Sequence record: ON528725 | Length of the DNA stretch: 64,000 bases | Direction: 5' to 3' (one strand) | Origin: Shigella phage ESh15 | In this document: positions 1 to 21,991 of the stretch, in pieces | Position numbering within the stretch: the stretch's first letter is position 1 | Layout of the letters: every line of letters begins with the position of its first letter | The notes under the pieces: generated by a model | What the model saw: the letters and a program-made list of their open reading frames with translations, nothing else | Databases searched by the model: none | What the model was told of the DNA's origin: nothing | Position numbers and translations under genes: made by a program

Positions 1-417
1 ATTAACTGACAACATATCGGTTTTTAAGAATTCGTCAATATAAAAACGTGGTTTATTAGGGTCTGCAGTGATATTGAAATTGAATTCTACATCAAAAGCG
101 CCGCCATAACCAGTGATATCTGTGATTAGAAAATCACAATCATAATAATCAATTAATGAATCAACCACAAATTCATTTTCAGACCAGAAATATTTACGAG
201 TGTTATACGCGTTATCTTTATACCATAATGGAACAAACTTAAATTCCGGGAAAAGACGTTCACATTCTTTAATATCAGATGCATTACGTGGATATGTAAT
301 CACATCACCTGGATTAGCACGGTGCAAATGAAGTTGGAAGTTGCCATCCTTAAGGATAGCATACTGTCCAGTTTCATAAGACCGCATACTCAAGATTGGT
401 ACGCGGAAAATAGCCAT
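1..417 (-). CDS. hypothetical protein, N-terminal part only (gene runs past window start); occupies the position where T4 has beta-glucosyltransferase
   Basis: ATG at 417..415 overlaps gene 42 stop (TAATG); open frame to window edge (MAIFRVPILSMRSYETGQ...); not in ORF track because it has no stop in window; no family recognised. Confidence 0.45.
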   Translation of the reverse strand, partial: MAIFRVPILSMRSYETGQYAILKDGNFQLHLHRANPGDVITYPRNASDIKECERLFPEFKFVPLWYKDNAYNTRKYFWSENEFVVDSLIDYYDCDFLITDITGYGGAFDVEFNFNITADPNKPRFYIDEFLKTDMLSVN

Positions 418-1133
418 TAGTCAAGGAATCCTTTAACATAATCAAAATCACGTTCAAACACATGGGCACTTACCATGGTATGAGTATAATCACCAACTTC
501 TACACCGCATTCGTTAGCGATATAATGAAGTAATTTTCCTTGGAGATAAAAATCCAACTGCATAACAACAGCACAGTTCTGAGAACGCATATGACAGTGT
601 GTATAAAGCTTACCATCACGAATATAATAAGTCACTGAGTCAGTACATGGATATTCAAGCGTTTCGTCTGAATCAAGCAAAGCCTGATCAGAACTTTCTA
701 GAATTTGGAACACAACTCTTCGAGAGTTAGGCTTCTCTTTAAGTTCTTTTAGAAGAGCTGGTAATTGAGCCGCAATGCGAGGACCATAGAAAGTGTTGAA
801 GTTCGCAGGCAAAGCATCTGATTTTGGTTTAGAAATAAATTTAGCGACATTAGGATATGCCTTAAACGCTTCTTCTGCATCAGTACCACCAGAAATCATA
901 AACTTCCAGAAGTCTTCGGCATATTCATAAGAGATGCGGTTAATACGTGGGTCGGTCATTTTGAATGATGATGGAGTGTCAACAACTACTGTCATAGACC
1001 CAATTTCATTACAACGTCCAATACGAGAATCAGTTACGAATTCCGGGTTTTCTAAAATTTCACGATTGACTGCTTTAAATGCGGTTTGAAAATCTGCGGC
1101 TTTGATATATTTCATTGTGTTATGTTTTCCCAT
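417..1133 (-). CDS. 42: dCMP hydroxymethylase-like protein (thymidylate synthase superfamily)
   Basis: 238 aa; active-site-like P-C-T-x-x-V-x-Y-x-I-R and SRR motifs; position equivalent to T4 gene 42. Confidence 0.6.
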   Translation of the reverse strand: MGKHNTMKYIKAADFQTAFKAVNREILENPEFVTDSRIGRCNEIGSMTVVVDTPSSFKMTDPRINRISYEYAEDFWKFMISGGTDAEEAFKAYPNVAKFISKPKSDALPANFNTFYGPRIAAQLPALLKELKEKPNSRRVVFQILESSDQALLDSDETLEYPCTDSVTYYIRDGKLYTHCHMRSQNCAVVMQLDFYLQGKLLHYIANECGVEVGDYTHTMVSAHVFERDFDYVKGFLD

Positions 1134-1175: not shown

Positions 1176-1415
1176 TTATTTGAATTTCTTGACAATGTTG
1201 ATATAACGTAAAGCTTCAGCATCGATACTTCCAAGAACACTATGAAGGAATGCATCAGTGTAGTATTCCAATTGAACCGGTTCTTTAATCACTTTAGCCG
1301 CTTTGGTTTCAAACAGGCCCATAAGGGCCTTTTTAAGAATTTGTTCGTTAGTGTTCAGTTTTATAGTCAAAATCTCTTCATTAAGTTTATAATTAAAAGT
1401 TTTTCTAGAAATCAT
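1176..1415 (-). CDS. hypothetical protein (79 aa)
   Basis: ORF with 4-nt overlap to upstream gene; hydrophilic, so not an Imm-like membrane protein. Confidence 0.45.
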   Translation of the reverse strand: MISRKTFNYKLNEEILTIKLNTNEQILKKALMGLFETKAAKVIKEPVQLEYYTDAFLHSVLGSIDAEALRYINIVKKFK

Positions 1416-2572
1416 TCCGGGTACCTCAAAGCGTCATCAGAGTTAGTTATATCAATAATAGATATGGAGTTTTCTGCTAACCCGTTTTTAGATAATTGAC
1501 GTTTATAATATCTTTCACAATATGTACACGTTGACCCACAGATTTCATTGGCACAATCAAAATCCGGATGTCTGAACCACCTTTTTTCTAAAAAGCCATC
1601 TAACAAAGAGGTTTCAATATTTACTGTATGTGAAAACTCAGTCTCATTTTCAAGAGTGAAAATAGTCTCTAAAGGCTTCCACAGTTCTAACAAATTACCT
1701 TCAAACTTTTCAGAAGCGTATGCTTCAAGAACTTTCAAAATGTAGTCTGTGCTACCTGTACGTCCTGAAACTTTGAATTGAGTGATACCAATATCATTAT
1801 AAAGTTTCAAATCTTGAGGACGAACAAAACGAGTTCTCAACCAGTTAAATGGGTCCGTATCACGAGCTTTAATGCAGTGTTGCATTGGATATCCATTTAA
1901 GGATTTAGCATCATCAGCTGTAACATCAGTACTATGGAAAATATAGCAAGAGTCACGATAGCTACAATGTGTTGTATACCCTTTACCAGCATTAGAACAG
2001 AACTCATTTACAAGAACTTCAAATATTATATTGTTCTTATTGCAAAACTCTGCTGCACGCTTCAGGAAAGAAACTGAACGGTTCTTATGAATTCCGCAAC
2101 AGACTTTTTTGATGTTATATTGGTCGTGCAAGTATTTGATTTGAGTTACGGCATCAACATGTAGAATTGTTGAAACTTCAATCTCAATATCTTTATTGAC
2201 TTCACGAACAATTTCCATAACAACAGGGTTAGCGATAGTAATACGCCATACGCCTATTGACCAAAGATACTGAACATAATCCTGAATAGCTTTCTTCTTC
2301 CACTCAACTAGTTCTCTTTTTGAACCAGGATTTATCGTGTTGAGTGTATAGTTAAAGCAAATACCTAATTCATTACAACGTTTAACATAGTCTTCTAACA
2401 TCTTTTTGTCAACGTCAGGAAGCCTAAAATCAGGTCTGGCTGCTACAAAAGCCATTTCTCTTGTAGAGCCGTATACTTCATTTATCAAGCTATTAGGATA
2501 AGTTTTATTGAGCTCTACGATTTTATCAAGAAGAGCTAAATCAAAATTCGTTCCGATTTTAAAAGTATTCAT
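1412..2572 (-). CDS. Cys-rich protein with C-terminal CxxxCxxC cluster, possible Fe-S enzyme; fold unassigned
   Basis: 386 aa; C-terminal C-x4-C-x3-C-x2-C (DFDCANEICGSTCTYC) plus several other Cys; weak resemblance to U32-type TIM-barrel proteins (FNYTLNTI segment). Confidence 0.6.
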   Translation of the reverse strand: MNTFKIGTNFDLALLDKIVELNKTYPNSLINEVYGSTREMAFVAARPDFRLPDVDKKMLEDYVKRCNELGICFNYTLNTINPGSKRELVEWKKKAIQDYVQYLWSIGVWRITIANPVVMEIVREVNKDIEIEVSTILHVDAVTQIKYLHDQYNIKKVCCGIHKNRSVSFLKRAAEFCNKNNIIFEVLVNEFCSNAGKGYTTHCSYRDSCYIFHSTDVTADDAKSLNGYPMQHCIKARDTDPFNWLRTRFVRPQDLKLYNDIGITQFKVSGRTGSTDYILKVLEAYASEKFEGNLLELWKPLETIFTLENETEFSHTVNIETSLLDGFLEKRWFRHPDFDCANEICGSTCTYCERYYKRQLSKNGLAENSISIIDITNSDDALRYPE

Positions 2573-2630: not shown

Positions 2631-3032
2631 TTATAGATTCGGTTTATACGATTTAAATGTTTCGAATTCGCCTTTATTCATAAGAGCTTTGAATTCGTCA
2701 GGACGCATAGCTTTGTCGTCGATAATCCAATCATATACTGGTTTATGTGTTAGCAAATTATGGTACTTCAAACCAATGTTTTCCAAGTTCTGAATCAGAC
2801 TTGGGAGAATGTCAATTGCTATACGACCAGGACCTACTGACTTCATACCACGAGCAGTGTAAAGCGTTATGGTATGCCCTGCATCATACAGGGCATTAAT
2901 GGCAGACACCATTTCGACGTCTGGTTTGAAGTTCACGTAATCACGATTGTTATTCCATTCCGTGATGCAATCATCGACATCAAAACAAAGATTAAGCATG
3001 TTTTCTACACGGTGCATTAGATTCGTTCCCAT
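2631..3032 (-). CDS. HAD-like phosphatase (small, KdsC-like)
   Basis: 133 aa; motif I-like FDVDDCIT, TARG, C-terminal WIIDDKA acidic motif; alternative start at 3017 overlapping upstream stop (TAATG). Confidence 0.5.
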   Translation of the reverse strand: MGTNLMHRVENMLNLCFDVDDCITEWNNNRDYVNFKPDVEMVSAINALYDAGHTITLYTARGMKSVGPGRIAIDILPSLIQNLENIGLKYHNLLTHKPVYDWIIDDKAMRPDEFKALMNKGEFETFKSYKPNL

Positions 3033-4705
3033 TGATGAGTGATATCGCCACCGATTGGACGATAGGAAACACCAGTTTCTTTATCAGTTAGTACCCATTT
3101 ACCAGGATTTTTTGTAATCAGAGTAGCCGTTACAGGTTCTGCTACGTCATAACTAATAGAGCCGTCTTGAAGTACACGACCCATGTTACGTAATTGCTTA
3201 GTCAGAAGTTCCATACCTTTATAATATGCTGCTACCGCTTTAAGTGGATTATTCTTGAAATAACCACCTAATGCAATCCAGATAATTGCTACTGCCAAAT
3301 GATGATACTCGTTAAACGAACTCATCTTTCCATATTTGTAAACTAGTGGATTGATGTTAATAGTCACATTACAAGTTGTTTCATCAATAATAAACTGGCC
3401 CCAGGTCGGATTAGCGTTGAATTCATCATAACCTGAAACAGCATAAAGCACTTTAGCTTCATCATACAATTTTGGCCCGTAAATCTTGGTTTCACCAAAA
3501 TATCCACGAGGGTCGATAAACTTGACTTCGCCGTTATCAGTAATCATGGTATTACTGAAGTTCGGGTCACCGTGAATAACAGAGTACTGTCCCTGAGAAC
3601 GGTTATGATAGCGAATAAGATGTTCTAAAGCTTGTTTCAACATTGGCTTCAGATGTCCAATCTTAGTGTAGTTCACGTGTGTGATTTTACCAAATGAATC
3701 AATCAATGGCTGAATGCTTTCACAACGATCAATAACTTTCGTATAGAATTCTTTAGTGAAATCACGACGAACAGTTTCAGGACTTACAAAATAAGTGTCT
3801 GTGCTGAATTTCAGTGCATCTAAAATTACATCAACAATTTGTGGACGAGCAAGACTTGATTTGGATTTAATATATTCAAATGCTGGCTTACCTTTAATAC
3901 GTTCCATAATAAAGTGGCCGCCAGGATGATAACTTACAATCTGTGGAACTGAATCTGATTTAACTTTCTTATACCAATTGACTTCATCTTTTTGAAGTGC
4001 AACGCCCTGTTCTGTTAAAGCAATCTTTGTTACCGTTTCTTCGCCAATTTCAACTGCATTAAAACTACGATTAAGTTCACGAACTTCATGAGCTTTTTCA
4101 AGTTTAGGCATATCACCAAGGTCGATGATATTCATAAGCTCTGATTTATTGAATGCGCCGCTGTAAAGGAATTCTACGAAATCACGTCCTTTGCAGTATT
4201 CATGAATTTCCTCATCAGTAGAACCCATATAGAATTCCCAGTCTTTGAACTGATAAATTCCTACAACATTACCACCTGTTGAACCTACGTTAGTGATATT
4301 TTCACCGTCGAAATTATATCGACATTCGTCACCCTTAACATAGATTGCGTTAACATTCCAAGACCATGAACCAAAATCAGGAATAATATCGCACCAGTTA
4401 ACAACTACGTTATGGCCGTCTAAATCTTTATGTAATTTAGCAAGAGCATAAGCAGAACCATACGCTTCATCAACTGTACGAATAGTCACATTGAACCCTT
4501 CTTGCTCACAATAAGCTCGAACAGTTTCAGCAAATTTTGAATGAACTACTACAATAATTTCATCTGCACCAAGGTCAGAATAAATTGTATACAAATTGCT
4601 CAGAATAGTGTCTTGTTTATAGTTCACAAGAACTTTTGGAATATGGTGAGTAATTGGATATAAACGAGTTGCCAATCCAGCACCAAGAATAACAGCTTTT
4701 TTCAT
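3017..4705 (-). CDS. bifunctional sugar-1-phosphate nucleotidyltransferase (N-terminal) / APH-ChoK-type sugar kinase (C-terminal)
   Basis: 562 aa; N-terminal ILGAGLATRLYPIT resembles RmlA/GalU G-x-G-T-R-L-Y-P-I-T; C-terminal HGDPNFSN (H-x-D-x4-N kinase catalytic motif) and FIDPRG. Confidence 0.7.
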   Translation of the reverse strand: MKKAVILGAGLATRLYPITHHIPKVLVNYKQDTILSNLYTIYSDLGADEIIVVVHSKFAETVRAYCEQEGFNVTIRTVDEAYGSAYALAKLHKDLDGHNVVVNWCDIIPDFGSWSWNVNAIYVKGDECRYNFDGENITNVGSTGGNVVGIYQFKDWEFYMGSTDEEIHEYCKGRDFVEFLYSGAFNKSELMNIIDLGDMPKLEKAHEVRELNRSFNAVEIGEETVTKIALTEQGVALQKDEVNWYKKVKSDSVPQIVSYHPGGHFIMERIKGKPAFEYIKSKSSLARPQIVDVILDALKFSTDTYFVSPETVRRDFTKEFYTKVIDRCESIQPLIDSFGKITHVNYTKIGHLKPMLKQALEHLIRYHNRSQGQYSVIHGDPNFSNTMITDNGEVKFIDPRGYFGETKIYGPKLYDEAKVLYAVSGYDEFNANPTWGQFIIDETTCNVTININPLVYKYGKMSSFNEYHHLAVAIIWIALGGYFKNNPLKAVAAYYKGMELLTKQLRNMGRVLQDGSISYDVAEPVTATLITKNPGKWVLTDKETGVSYRPIGGDITHQWERI

Positions 4706-4746: not shown

Positions 4747-4890
4747 CTAGTTAAAGCATTCATACTTTGCCTGTAGACCAATCATAATCCATCCAATTAC
4801 AAGTGTTGGAATCATTACTGGAACCGTTAAGCTCCAGTAGATAGTCATGACAAGCATCAATAGTAAAAGTCCTATTGTTATTGCTTTCAT
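4747..4890 (-). CDS. small hydrophobic membrane peptide (47 aa), below ORF-track cutoff
   Basis: ATG overlaps stop of SIS gene (ATGA); translation MKAITIGLLLLMLVMTIYWSLTVPVMIPTLVIGWIMIGLQAKYECFN; coordinates approximate. Confidence 0.35.
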   Translation of the reverse strand: MKAITIGLLLLMLVMTIYWSLTVPVMIPTLVIGWIMIGLQAKYECFN

Positions 4891-5522
4891 TGTTCGCCTC
4901 GTAACATGGCACCTAGTGCACCGCCAGGGTGGAACTTAAGGAAGTCATTAGAGGTAAATCCACGTTCAGACGAAAGGTTGATAGCGAACGTATCGATAAG
5001 CGCTAACAACAATGTAGTGGACATGGTCGGAGCTAAAGAGTTCTCGTCAACTTCTACCGCGATACCAGTACAGAACGTATAATCAAAAAGAGCTTCGTAT
5101 TCTTGTGGAATGTCAGGGTTACAATGTAACAGAATCTGTTTAACCTGAGGACGAATCATACGAAGATGTTTAGCAACACCTATCATTTCTTCAGTCTTAC
5201 CAGAACGACTAATATGAATCAACACATCATTAGGCGCAATGAATCCTGCATCACCGTGAGAATAATGCCCAGTGTTCAAGTACATACTCGGGATACCGAG
5301 TGAAGCAAATGTCTCAGAAGCTTTAGTTGCAATATTAGCATTCTTACCAACACCTGTAATAATTACTCGGCTTTCATAATTACTAAGTCCAGGGCGTCGA
5401 AGAGTTTCTAGAATAGCATTATAACGAGCAGGGTTTTGACTAATTACTTTGGCCATGGTGGCAAGAGATGAAGCTTGTTTTACGATTGCGTCAATAGCGA
5501 TAGTGATTGGTGTAGTTTTCAT
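4887..5522 (-). CDS. SIS-domain sugar-phosphate isomerase (arabinose-5-phosphate isomerase KdsD/GutQ-like)
   Basis: 211 aa; VIITGVGKNANIATKASETFASLGIPSMYLNTGHYSHGD resembles the KdsD SIS core (GxGKS...HGD); no CBS domains. Confidence 0.7.
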   Translation of the reverse strand: MKTTPITIAIDAIVKQASSLATMAKVISQNPARYNAILETLRRPGLSNYESRVIITGVGKNANIATKASETFASLGIPSMYLNTGHYSHGDAGFIAPNDVLIHISRSGKTEEMIGVAKHLRMIRPQVKQILLHCNPDIPQEYEALFDYTFCTGIAVEVDENSLAPTMSTTLLLALIDTFAINLSSERGFTSNDFLKFHPGGALGAMLRGEQ

Positions 5523-19706: not shown

Positions 19707-20177
19707 TTAATCATGTTTCCACACCCCATCGGTATTTGACCAAAGTCGCTGATTATCTGATCCTCGCCACAGCTTTTTGGTCGGAAGATTCTTCTCATAC
19801 TTCCCATCAATAATAACATCAACATATTTAAGCATTTCTAGTTGTTTAATATCTTCAAAATTATATCCTGTCCACAACCAAATGCTTTTATTGGGATAAA
19901 GATTTTTAATAGTTTGAACCACAGAGTGAATCACATCTCTGTTATCAGGATAGAGAGGGTCTCCTCCAGTTATAGTCAATCCTTCTATATAATCATTATT
20001 CAAACATTCAATTAATTGTTCTAGTGTTTCACCAGTGAATGGAATACCATTTCTAGCATTCCATGTTGATTTATTATAACACCCTTCGCATTTATGCAAA
20101 CACCCTGTAACGAAAAGAACAACCCTACAACCAGGGCCGTTCACAAAATCGCAAGGATAAAATCTATCATAATTCAT
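19707..20177 (-). CDS. nrdG: anaerobic ribonucleotide reductase activating protein (radical SAM)
   Basis: 156 aa; Cys-rich N-terminus CDFVNGPGCRVVLFVTGCLHKCEGC. Confidence 0.9.
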   Translation of the reverse strand: MNYDRFYPCDFVNGPGCRVVLFVTGCLHKCEGCYNKSTWNARNGIPFTGETLEQLIECLNNDYIEGLTITGGDPLYPDNRDVIHSVVQTIKNLYPNKSIWLWTGYNFEDIKQLEMLKYVDVIIDGKYEKNLPTKKLWRGSDNQRLWSNTDGVWKHD

Positions 20178-21991
20178 TGGTGTTTAACCCTATGCATGAT
20201 TTCTTTATTTTTACCGAGATTAAATCCGCGTTCGTTAGGATTTCCCAAATAACCGCAGGTCCTTCTTATAGTGTTCATCTTTTTAGGATCAGTTTCTCCA
20301 CAAACTGAACAAACAAATCCATTTTCAGTAGGAGTCATTTCATGAGTACTTCCGCATGTAAAACATTTATCCACTGGCATATTAACACCAAAATAATCTA
20401 AATGTTGCGCAGCATAATCCCAGACAGCCTCAAGTCCCTTTAAATTGTTTTTCATATCTGGAAGTTCAACATAAGAAATGTGACCACCTGTCGCAATGAA
20501 ATGATACGGCGCTTCACGAGAAATCTTTTCAAACGGAGTAATATTTTCTTCTACTGAAACATGGAAACTATTAGTGTACCAGCCTTTATCGGTAACATCT
20601 TTTACGCTTCCATATTTTTCAGTATCAAGTTTACAGAAACGATAACAAAGGTTTTCAGCAGGAGTAGAATATAAACTAAAAGCAAATCCAGTTCTTTCGG
20701 TCCACTGTTTAAGATGAGCATTCATTTTAGTTAAAATTTCTTGTCCAATATCACGACCAACAAGAATATTCAATTCATGAATACCAATGTATCCTAAAGA
20801 CACTGAACTTCTACCGTTTTTAAATAACTCAATTATATCGTCGTCAGGTTTAAGACGAACCCCAAATGCACCTTCTTGGTAAAGAATAGGAGCAACAGTA
20901 GCTTTAACTCCTTTTAAGGAACTAATTCTACACATCAAGGCTTCAAAGCACAGATCCATTCGTTCATTAAATAATTCGATAAATTTCTGTTCATTGAACT
21001 GTGTTCCAATATAAGAATCTAATGCGATACGAGGAAGATTCAGTGTTACAACACCGAGATTATTACGTCCATCAAGAATTTCATTACCAGTCGAATCTTT
21101 CCATACGCTCAAGAAACTACGGCAACCCATTGGAGAAACTGGAACTGAAGAACCGGTAATAGCTTTATTATTCTTAACAGAAATAATGTCAGGATACATT
21201 CTTTTGCTTGCACACTCTAGAGCGAGTTGCTTAATATCATAGTTCGGATCATCTTTATAAAGATTAACACCCTCTTCAACAAACATAACAAGTTTAGGAA
21301 AAATAGGAGTTATTCCATCACGGCCGAGACCTTTAATACGATTTTTCAGAATTGCTTTCTGAATCATTCGTTCAGTCCAATCGGTTCCTGTCCCAAATGT
21401 TATAGTAACAAAAGGAGTTTGACCGTTTGAACTAAAAAGAGTATTTACTTCATATTCATAAGCTTGGAATGCGTCATAGACATCTTTTTCTGTTTTAGAT
21501 TGAGCATAATTCAGAATGTCTGGTATTTGCCATTTTTCTGCATCTTCAACATGTTTAGCGTATGTACGTTTAACATAAGGAGAAAGAACTTTATCGACAT
21601 TTGCAAATGTAGTTCCGCCATACTGATGTGAAGCAACCTGTGCAGTAATTTGTGCCATAATTGCAGTAGCAACACCAATCGATTTAGGCGTTTCAATTTG
21701 AGCATTGCCTAATTTAAATCCATTCTCAAGCATCCCCTTTAAATCGACTAAACAACAATTAGTAAACGGAAGAGCAGGAGAATAATCAATATCATGCATG
21801 TGGATAATTCCACTTTCATGCGCATTCATAATAAAAGACGGGACCATATTTTTGGCAATGTGCTTAGACACAATACCAGCCATAAGGTCCCGTTGAGTTG
21901 GAAAAACACGAGAATCTTTATTAGCATTCTCGTTCAAAAGATCTTTATTAGTTTTATAAATTAATCCTTCAATTTCTTTTTCAATTTTCAT
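20174..21991 (-). CDS. nrdD: anaerobic ribonucleoside-triphosphate reductase (class III)
   Basis: 605 aa continuous ORF; C-terminal glycyl radical motif RRTCGYLG and Zn-ribbon cysteines CFTCG...CSVCG. Confidence 0.92.
   Translation of the reverse strand: MKIEKEIEGLIYKTNKDLLNENANKDSRVFPTQRDLMAGIVSKHIAKNMVPSFIMNAHESGIIHMHDIDYSPALPFTNCCLVDLKGMLENGFKLGNAQIETPKSIGVATAIMAQITAQVASHQYGGTTFANVDKVLSPYVKRTYAKHVEDAEKWQIPDILNYAQSKTEKDVYDAFQAYEYEVNTLFSSNGQTPFVTITFGTGTDWTERMIQKAILKNRIKGLGRDGITPIFPKLVMFVEEGVNLYKDDPNYDIKQLALECASKRMYPDIISVKNNKAITGSSVPVSPMGCRSFLSVWKDSTGNEILDGRNNLGVVTLNLPRIALDSYIGTQFNEQKFIELFNERMDLCFEALMCRISSLKGVKATVAPILYQEGAFGVRLKPDDDIIELFKNGRSSVSLGYIGIHELNILVGRDIGQEILTKMNAHLKQWTERTGFAFSLYSTPAENLCYRFCKLDTEKYGSVKDVTDKGWYTNSFHVSVEENITPFEKISREAPYHFIATGGHISYVELPDMKNNLKGLEAVWDYAAQHLDYFGVNMPVDKCFTCGSTHEMTPTENGFVCSVCGETDPKKMNTIRRTCGYLGNPNERGFNLGKNKEIMHRVKHQ

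Follow-up and report, generated by a model that had tools for sequence, protein, structure and literature searches.

We analysed a 64,000-nucleotide stretch of Shigella phage ESh15 (record ON528725, in the following called the window) with a focus on one gene encoding a cysteine-rich protein of the U32 family, the ortholog of gp50 of phage RB69. We show this protein being a true U32 family member, by sequence as well as by fold, and we favour, with moderate confidence, a model according to which it is an O2-independent, prephenate-dependent pyrimidine C5 hydroxylase, i.e. an anaerobic isoenzyme of the 5-hydroxy-deoxycytidine monophosphate (5-hydroxy-dCMP) synthase. In this model the iron-sulfur (Fe-S) enzyme would hydroxylate the pyrimidine at C5 without molecular oxygen, the oxygen atom being taken from prephenate and the most likely substrate being cytosine as deoxynucleotide, resulting in conversion of dCMP to 5-hydroxy-dCMP. 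The U32 enzyme would thereby back up the neighbouring ThyA-type hydroxylase when O2 is absent, and both enzymes together would enable replacement of cytosine by 5-hydroxycytosine and its subsequent arabinosylation in air and in the anoxic gut. The protein family, the gene context and the phyletic pattern all suggest such an O2-independent hydroxylation.

The known pathway to arabinosylated 5-hydroxycytosine needs O2, yet RB69-type phages prey on gut bacteria living largely without oxygen. RB69 DNA carries arabinosylated 5-hydroxycytosine and not 5-hydroxymethylcytosine (hmC), and RB69 gp48 makes 5-hydroxy-dCMP with flavin and O2, 18O2 labelling showing that the oxygen comes from O2 (PMC13326640). 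Because the published hydroxylase takes its oxygen from O2, an anoxic route would be physiologically needed. The ThyA homolog of the window bears E143/N169/D177, the published signature of the O2- and flavin-dependent 5-hydroxy-dCMP synthase, and by this signature the neighbour that a first-pass annotation, made from the sequence by a model, had described as an hmC enzyme is instead a 5-hydroxy-dCMP synthase. All 17 of 17 T4-like U32 loci pair U32 with this O2-dependent type of hydroxylase (N169).

Family membership and cysteine pattern of the protein

The protein matches the Pfam family Peptidase_U32 (PF01136) within residues 94-286 with 42.2 bits compared to a gathering score of 22.4 (E 7e-11), and a profile-profile comparison of its clade with the E. 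coli U32 set results in a probability of 97% (E 4.5e-11). A U32-type TIM-barrel fold was found for the window protein. The weak resemblance to U32-type TIM-barrel proteins noted in the first-pass annotation is thus confirmed as family membership, and its hint at anaerobic nucleobase hydroxylases turned out to be the best lead. There are 263 detectable homologs, i.e. approximately 19 T4-like orthologs followed by a large set of 360-residue proteins at 45-58% identity, and an exhaustive profile search of the clade yielded 497 representative clusters at E<=1e-30. A sequence search of the PDB returned no solved relatives.

With 13 cysteines in 386 residues the protein contains 3.4% Cys compared to 1.27% across the open reading frames (ORFs) of the window. 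The translation of its C-terminal motif region reads CANEICGSTCTYC, i.e. C340-x4-C345-x3-C349-x2-C352, and given the Cys composition of the protein approximately 0.0005 four-Cys motifs of such spacing are expected in the window. In 121 homologs of 48-88% identity C158, C192, C203, C209, C233, C340, C345, C349, C352 and H213 are all invariant, showing that the Cys pattern did not arise by chance; translation and conservation both bear out the cysteine-rich protein with a C-terminal C-x4-C-x3-C-x2-C that had been described earlier. Among 131 full-length, more distant representatives (24-47% identity) C192, C233, R46, R165 and R271 are essentially universal, the C-terminal cysteines are kept in 109-115 and C203 together with C209 in 80, the remainder representing a co-varying G/H variant.

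Canonical U32 ligands are C169, C176, C193 and C232 in UbiU and C169/170, C176/177, C192/193 and C196/197 in RlhA/TrhP, and C176 of UbiU is required for [4Fe-4S] binding (PMC10990095). The segment THC203-SYRDS-C209-YIFH213 of the window protein aligns with LC169-VAYSGQ-C176-YISH180 of RlhA, in which C169, C176 and H180 are the counterparts of C203, C209 and H213, and C233 aligns with the UbiU ligand C232. Because the Cys pattern is invariant and C203, C209 and C233 align with positions of cluster ligands, the Fe-S binding suggested in the first-pass annotation is plausible, and the invariant C192 or C158 may stand in for the ligand equivalent to C193. In the alignments with UbiU, UbiV, RlhA and TrhP of E. 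coli nothing corresponds to the C-terminal four-Cys module, which may constitute a clade-specific second metal site, accommodating either an auxiliary Fe-S cluster or zinc.

Part of this module, C345-x3-C349-x2-C352 with a Tyr before the last Cys, resembles the CxxxCxΦC motif of radical S-adenosylmethionine (SAM) enzymes. We rejected membership of the radical SAM family because the motif is located in the tail after the U32 barrel, is accompanied by a fourth, invariant Cys (C340) and gives no match to Pfam Radical_SAM. NrdG of the same window, which contains the only other CxxxCxxC of the window, does match Radical_SAM.

The compact four-Cys motif could bind zinc, and annotations as 'peptidase' or 'collagenase-like protease', including PHROG 5757 ('peptidase'), would make the protein a collagenase-like protease or a non-redox protein with structural zinc only. 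We regard this as highly improbable: nine invariant cysteines including the aligned U32 cluster positions exceed the needs of a zinc site, the naming as protease is a historical one that finds no support in the characterised U32 members, and proteolysis leaves the linkage to chorismate mutase, nucleotide kinases and the glycosyltransferase GT1 described below unexplained. We also rejected a role as a defence system, the PADLOC models matching neither the U32 protein of the window nor its cellular homologs.

The protein belongs to none of the characterised U32 subfamilies. The UbiU subfamily model (NCBIfam NF047963) gives 18.5 bits compared to a cutoff of 440, and the hidden Markov model (HMM) of the clade scores UbiU with 5.9 bits. 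RlhA, scored with 9.5 bits, has an architecture of approximately 650 residues compared to 386 in the window protein, and its alignment is confined to core residues 54-285. For TrhP, scored with 15.5 bits, hhalign gives 26%, and PF01136 is the sole Pfam domain of the window protein at E<=1, no C-terminal extension being present. We regard the clade as a U32 subfamily of its own, carried by phages, equipped with an additional four-Cys module and apparently aimed at DNA precursors. Hydroxylation of host or phage RNA, at tRNA U34 or at rRNA C2501-like sites, by which translation would be tuned in infection, is a further reading, since all U32 enzymes known to act on nucleic acids hydroxylate RNA and, among single sequences, RlhA gives the best match (hhalign 87%). 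The window protein lacks the C-terminal parts of TrhP and RlhA, the host already has both enzymes, and the gene is constantly accompanied by DNA-nucleotide kinases, a DNA glycosyltransferase and genes of replication, making an RNA target very unlikely.

Possible prephenate supply, host distribution and gene order

Chorismate mutase (CM) makes prephenate, and a CM gene accompanies U32 in two architectures, i.e. the linkage of both genes recurs. The CM gene of Serratia phage LC53 and that of Enterobacter phage Entb_45 are located directly downstream of U32 with an overlap of 4 bp and upstream of the ThyA homolog, the scores for Pfam CM_2 being 44.6 and 40.9 bits, respectively, compared to a cutoff of 27. 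By tblastn we found this gene in 56 phage records covering approximately 15 host genera (Klebsiella, Serratia, Yersinia, Enterobacter, Edwardsiella, Erwinia, Proteus, Pectobacterium, Shewanella, Providencia, Morganella, Kosakonia and others), and it adjoins the U32 and ThyA genes in every annotated record among the matches listed. All 17 of 17 CM sequences retain the core catalytic residues of the E. coli enzyme (R11, R28, K39, S84, Q88). In the second architecture, present in unrelated non-T4 viral contigs and metagenome-assembled genomes (MAGs), DAHP-synthase and CM are fused in a gene near U32; for the fusion of locus L038 the DAHP_synth_1 score is 88.7 bits and the CM_2 score 71.8 bits, and the fusions of L040/41, L051 and L062 are similar. 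These fusions suggest that the elements carrying them push host shikimate flux toward prephenate. Locus L058 encodes a CM of 94 residues near U32 in place of the fusion. A match in L026 covers only the DAHP-synthase part of a truncated gene and was excluded from the CM count.

The characterised U32 proteins, i.e. RlhA for 5-hydroxycytidine in rRNA, TrhP for 5-hydroxyuridine in tRNA and UbiU/V, take part in O2-independent hydroxylations needing prephenate from chorismate mutase (PMC5727448, PMC6599085, PMC10990095), and for UbiU/V prephenate was shown to be the oxygen donor (PMC10990095). The linkage to CM suggests, indirectly, that the phage protein may use prephenate as well.

The distribution over hosts is consistent with a role under anoxia. 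The ThyA-type hydroxylase is present in 373 phage records, including 57 of Acinetobacter and 20 of Rhizobium. U32 is present in 221, none of Acinetobacter or Rhizobium, with Enterobacterales or Shewanella as hosts among those listed (Escherichia 137, Klebsiella 26, Shigella 13, Serratia 7, Proteus 7, Yersinia 6, Enterobacter 4, furthermore Providencia, Edwardsiella, Shewanella and some others). We inspected Acinetobacter phage Maestro and Pseudomonas phage PspYZU05 directly and found the genes for the SIS isomerase, the nucleotidyltransferase/kinase, the HAD phosphatase and the ThyA-type hydroxylase with nothing in between. Bacterial genomes with members of the U32 clade are almost all from obligate anaerobes, including a Phocaeicola faecalis isolate, Tannerella, Romboutsia, Lachnospiraceae, Oscillospiraceae, Erysipelotrichales and Gastranaerophilaceae. 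The resulting pattern is a three-way split, in which phages of aerobes have the O2-dependent enzyme only, those of facultative anaerobes both and elements of anaerobes U32 only. Anaerobic ribonucleotide reduction served as a control: the window encodes NrdD and NrdG, while in Acinetobacter phage Acj9 (L073) nrdH adjoins gene 49, no nrdG or nrdD being present at the syntenic site, and Acinetobacter is not among the ten commonest host names of NrdD-bearing records. In the window a 157-residue ORF at the gene-49 position comes after NrdG/NrdD.

Our non-T4 sample comprises 46 loci from IMG/VR, GTDB genomes and metagenomes. The contigs of the 360-residue homologs are phage-like, encoding PolIII-alpha, RecA, primase, holin and terminase, and the immediate neighbours of U32 are nucleotide-metabolism genes. 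The commonest neighbours are GT1, which is homologous to RB69 gp46:47 (HMM E 1e-15 to 1e-30; hhalign 99.7%), and a gp45-like thymidylate-kinase-like protein, the typical order being kinase-GT1-U32; the T4-like order is U32, (orf79), (CM), ThyA-hydroxylase, GT1, kinase. By HMM, GT1 is found in 16 of the 46 loci and a CM domain in 6 (without L026). A ThyA-type hydroxylase is present in none of the 46 loci within +/-8 kb, and the only ThyA-family gene, located in L028, was rejected as hydroxylase, as it encodes a canonical thymidylate synthase (L143/D169/N177). With the order GT1, SIS, NTP-transferase/kinase, kinase, DAHP-synthase-CM fusion, HAD and U32, locus L041 is, judged by its gene content, a complete predicted glycosyl-hydroxypyrimidine cassette in which the U32 protein is the sole candidate hydroxylase. 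Loci L004, L029, L033, L034, L039, L042 and L054 show kinase-GT1-U32 with no arabinose genes in view, and U32 is therefore tied to the base and transferase step rather than to sugar activation.

This gene order also bears on a role of U32 in the sugar branch, in which it would act on arabinose-5-phosphate, NDP-arabinose (NDP, nucleoside diphosphate) or a precursor. Such a role would fit the position of the gene between the HAD phosphatase and the base hydroxylase, the presence of NTP-transferase/kinase genes in 18 and of SIS isomerase genes in 10 of the 46 non-T4 loci, and the label 'Sugar or heterocycle reductase' for RB69 gp50, which is given in Table 1 of the RB69 study only, with no data, experiment or discussion (PMC13326640). 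We consider it unlikely, as Acinetobacter, Pseudomonas and Dhakavirus phages have the full SIS, nucleotidyltransferase/kinase and HAD pathway without U32, several loci combine U32 with kinase and GT1 but no sugar genes in view, and the CM linkage has no rationale in pentose activation. To our knowledge, no U32 enzyme acts on sugars. RB69 DNA is free of extra sugar chemistry, and Acinetobacter phage DLP3, which lacks U32, makes the same arabinosyl-5-hydroxycytosine chemistry as RB69 (PMC13326640).

Two roles proposed in the first-pass annotation did not hold. A missing transferase misfits because the RB69 transferases are already assigned, i.e. gp46:47, the first DNA arabinosyltransferase, and gp3 (PMC13326640), and because the fold is a U32 TIM barrel and not that of a glycosyltransferase. 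An extra modification step is unlikely because aerobic RB69 DNA shows only arabinosylated 5-hydroxycytosine and DLP3 achieves this chemistry without the gene.

The level at which the hydroxylase would act is suggested by cytosine metabolism. T4-type phages destroy dCTP, so their replication requires a cytosine analogue in nucleotide form. The RB69 dCTPase is gp28 (PMC13326640). Because of this dCTP depletion and because dedicated nucleotide kinases are constant neighbours of U32, we infer a nucleotide as the substrate. A prephenate-dependent hydroxylase with another target, either cytosine in DNA after replication, another base (dUMP to 5-hydroxy-dUMP) or a second, conditional modification, would be in line with RlhA and TrhP working on polynucleotides, with dCMP deaminase and dUTPase genes flanking some non-T4 homologs (L001, L033, L047) and with the guanylate-kinase and methyltransferase fusion beside cellular homologs. 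We judge this to be improbable, given that dCTP destruction calls for a nucleotide-level analogue, that the dedicated kinases are the most constant neighbours and that only 5-hydroxycytosine derivatives are found in RB69 DNA, as measured aerobically.

Weighing of the model, its reach and accompanying genes

Several observations weigh against the U32 protein being an anaerobic 5-hydroxy-dCMP synthase. The model derives from comparative genomics, and direct catalysis is yet to be reconstituted even with RlhA, TrhP and UbiU/V (PMC10990095). The clade is far from every characterised U32 subfamily (<=15.5 bits), only three of four canonical ligand positions align (C203, C209, C233), no Cys being aligned at the equivalent of UbiU C193, and C203 and C209 are replaced in approximately 39% of the distant members. 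Chorismate mutase is absent from the window lineage, comprising 153 RB69-like records, so that these phages would depend on host PheA/TyrA, like E. coli's own U32 enzymes. Approximately 40 Escherichia records, e.g. Dhakavirus Bp7, have the ThyA-type hydroxylase without U32, and the gene is therefore not universally needed in facultative-anaerobe hosts. The host contrast is confounded by the phylogeny of Tevenvirinae versus Twarogvirinae, with few independent events, and many host assignments rest on MAG binning. Finally, sugar-activation genes accompany U32 in about half of the non-T4 loci, and the count of ThyA-type hydroxylases in these loci is confined to the given distance from U32.

Dhakaviruses represent a natural test of the need for U32 under anoxia. 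In Escherichia phage Bp7 the slot that holds U32, with or without CM, in other enterobacterial phages is occupied by a P-loop kinase-like protein of 178 residues with weak AAA and thymidylate-kinase matches (L010:6468-7004).

Beyond the window, we tentatively propose, with clearly less confidence than for the window protein itself, that the U32 clade with its approximately 500 representative clusters (E<=1e-30) provides a general O2-independent route to 5-hydroxypyrimidine DNA. Phages of obligate anaerobes would have no other hydroxylase to supply their hydroxypyrimidine hypermodifications, which would be glycosylated and perhaps also methylated; prephenate would be boosted by the phages' own CM or DAHP-synthase fusions, a free deoxynucleotide would be the substrate, and a built-in second metal site would replace a partner subunit.

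If the model is true, U32 chemistry would reach beyond RNA and quinones to DNA precursors, and if the wider proposal holds, no U32 hydroxylase before this one would have had a small soluble substrate, making it the first that is readily reconstituted in vitro; a single-subunit nucleotide enzyme of 386 residues could make the question of U32 in vitro reconstitution testable. A prephenate-driven U32 hydroxylase would explain how the modification, with the resistance to restriction and CRISPR, is kept up anaerobically, and the model predicts that phages of strict anaerobes harbour a large and so far unexplored range of hydroxypyrimidine DNA modifications. For phage therapy it implies possible differences in phage performance and in the state of DNA modification between aerobic culture in the laboratory and an anoxic site of use. 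In the literature on phage U32 or chorismate mutase tied to DNA modification we found no earlier proposal of this kind, two studies outside this search, He et al. 2026 and Mahler et al. 2025, possibly treating the gene. The discussion of the RB69 study cites the RlhA/TrhP papers as unrelated routes of pyrimidine hydroxylation, with no connection to gp50 (PMC13326640).

The window derives from an RB69-like T4-type phage with 97-98% identity over 6 kb to many Escherichia and Shigella phages. On the minus strand DNA polymerase is followed by the SIS isomerase, the nucleotidyltransferase/kinase, the HAD phosphatase, U32, orf79 and the ThyA homolog (Table 1). Just upstream of the U32 start codon an 18-nucleotide stem-loop with a stem of 7 bp is located at 2582-2599, flanked by an A-run on the coding strand, and an effect on translation initiation is possible. 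The counts of stem-loop sites as well as the matches of a promoter and terminator scan near the U32 gene are not above shuffled expectation.

Table 1. Positions of the U32 gene, its cysteine motifs and accompanying genes (positions refer to the window unless a locus is given)
Feature	Position	Strand	Remarks
U32-family gene	1412..2572	minus	386 aa; ortholog of RB69 gp50
Core U32 Cys region	1874..1999	minus	residues 192-233 (C192, C203, C209, H213, C233); probable [4Fe-4S] site
C-terminal C-x4-C-x3-C-x2-C motif	1517..1555	minus	C340, C345, C349, C352; from translation
orf79	1176..1415	minus	79 aa, Cys-free; ATG overlaps U32 TGA stop (ATGA)
ThyA homolog, 5-hydroxy-dCMP synthase (ortholog of RB69 gp48)	417..1133	minus	Pfam Thymidylat_synt; signature E143/N169/D177
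HAD phosphatase, NDP-arabinose pathway (RB69 gp51, AfhF-like)	2631..3032	minus	NCBIfam capsule biosynthesis phosphatase; PMC13326640
Bifunctional sugar-1-phosphate nucleotidyltransferase and kinase (RB69 gp52:53, AfhE-like)	3017..4705	minus	Pfam NTP_transferase and kinase-like matches; PMC13326640
Arabinose-5-phosphate isomerase, SIS domain (RB69 gp55)	4887..5522	minus	Pfam SIS; NCBIfam KpsF/KdsD
NrdG, radical-SAM activase; NrdD, anaerobic ribonucleotide reductase	19707..20177 and 20174..21991	minus	NrdD 572 bits
DAHP-synthase and CM fusions (320-372 aa)	L038:6411-7433, L041:6321-7376, L051:9079-10197, L062:6931-7959		beside U32 gene

Homologs of orf79 are found only in RB69-like phages, in Yersinia-phage loci (L020, L023) and in L027, the homolog being located between U32 and a true chorismate mutase in L020, L023 and L027. 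They share the conserved motif YY.DAF.HS..G.I.AE..R.IN, and no Pfam family matches orf79 even at E<=10. We rejected orf79 as a degenerate chorismate mutase, as it has no CM HMM score, hhalign gives a probability of 0.3% and it coexists with a true CM in some phages. Its AlphaFold2 model is of low confidence (pLDDT 62). Possibly, orf79 is an accessory factor of the U32 enzyme.

Further arrangements around U32 were observed. In several T4-like loci a protein of approximately 212 residues, a putative endonuclease in the LC53 annotation, is encoded between the HAD phosphatase and U32. The 230-kb jumbo-phage contig L028 (3509-9089) combines the thymidylate synthase, GT1, an HD-domain 5'-deoxynucleotidase (YfbR-like), a 181-residue protein, the NTP-transferase/kinase and U32 as a further variant of the cassette, and in viral contig L036 (6689-7951) an IS605 OrfB/TnpB with a Cas12f-like TNB domain lies directly upstream of U32, after the nucleotidyltransferase/kinase. 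In genomes of anaerobes (L065-L069, L002/L059; e.g. L069:3044-7137) the U32 homolog ends a four-gene cassette in the order GP88 (PF17338), a guanylate-kinase and SAM-methyltransferase fusion of approximately 430 residues, a protein of approximately 267 residues and U32, carried by Phocaeicola, Tannerella, Lachnospiraceae, BRC1, Woesearchaeota and Bacillota. This cassette could represent a hydroxylate-then-methylate nucleotide pathway. PADLOC gave no match for its U32, GP88 and 267-residue proteins and a weak mad2 match (E 2e-8) for the kinase-methyltransferase fusion. A second, far more divergent U32 paralog of 377 residues (L002:13227-14360, also in L059) is located 4 kb from the first and scores 21.7 bits in Pfam, just under the cutoff; its neighbours encode a radical-SAM/SPASM protein, a nucleoside 2-deoxyribosyltransferase-like protein, NT5C, a deoxynucleoside kinase and a nicotinamide mononucleotide transporter.

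Comparison with known systems

RlhA (YdcP), the E. coli 23S rRNA 5-hydroxycytidine-2501 synthase, shares the U32 core and the C-x(5-6)-C-Y-I-x-H motif with the phage protein, and its Fe-S- and prephenate-dependent hydroxylation of cytosine at C5 is the chemistry which by analogy would be carried out by the phage enzyme. In contrast, RlhA comprises 653 residues with a long C-terminal region and acts on a 50S precursor, whereas the phage protein, much shorter and with a low score to RlhA, has its own arrangement of the third and fourth ligand, its own C-terminal C-x4-C-x3-C-x2-C and neighbours pointing to deoxynucleotides and DNA. UbiU-UbiV, mediating O2-independent ubiquinone hydroxylation, are Fe-S proteins of the U32 family, with C232 of UbiU in the position of C233. 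The two assemble into a heterodimer, each subunit bearing one cluster, and their substrate is a lipid, whereas the phage protein is a single polypeptide, in which by analogy the second four-Cys site may replace the partner subunit. Mk0906, a Methanopyrus kandleri U32 'peptidase' (PDB 5d88), differs in sequence, with 11-14% identity, and consists of the barrel only, the C-terminal Cys module being absent.

The product and position in the pathway proposed for U32 are those of the 5-hydroxy-dCMP synthases RB69 gp48, DLP3 gp80 and HY126, which are encoded by the adjacent gene in the cassette. These have an unrelated fold, use flavin and O2 and are experimentally proven, in contrast to the role we suggest for U32.

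For 5-hydroxyuridine-34 of tRNA, the non-homologous hydroxylases TrhP, which is prephenate-dependent and of the U32 family, and TrhO, which is O2-dependent, generate one product; facultative organisms have both, anaerobes the U32 route only and aerobes the O2 route only. Phage U32 and the ThyA-type hydroxylase show the same three-way distribution. The phage systems differ in that the O2-dependent partner is a flavin-using thymidylate-synthase homolog and not a rhodanese, in that the substrate would, by analogy, be a DNA precursor and in that the C-terminal extension of TrhP is absent. The T4-type NrdAB/NrdDG reductases likewise are aerobic and anaerobic isoenzymes for DNA precursors; enzymes and chemistry differ, the analogy being one of strategy only. 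The pairing of an aerobic with an anaerobic enzyme that we propose for the RB69-like cassette thus has precedents in UbiIHF/UbiUV, TrhO/TrhP and T4 NrdAB/NrdDG.

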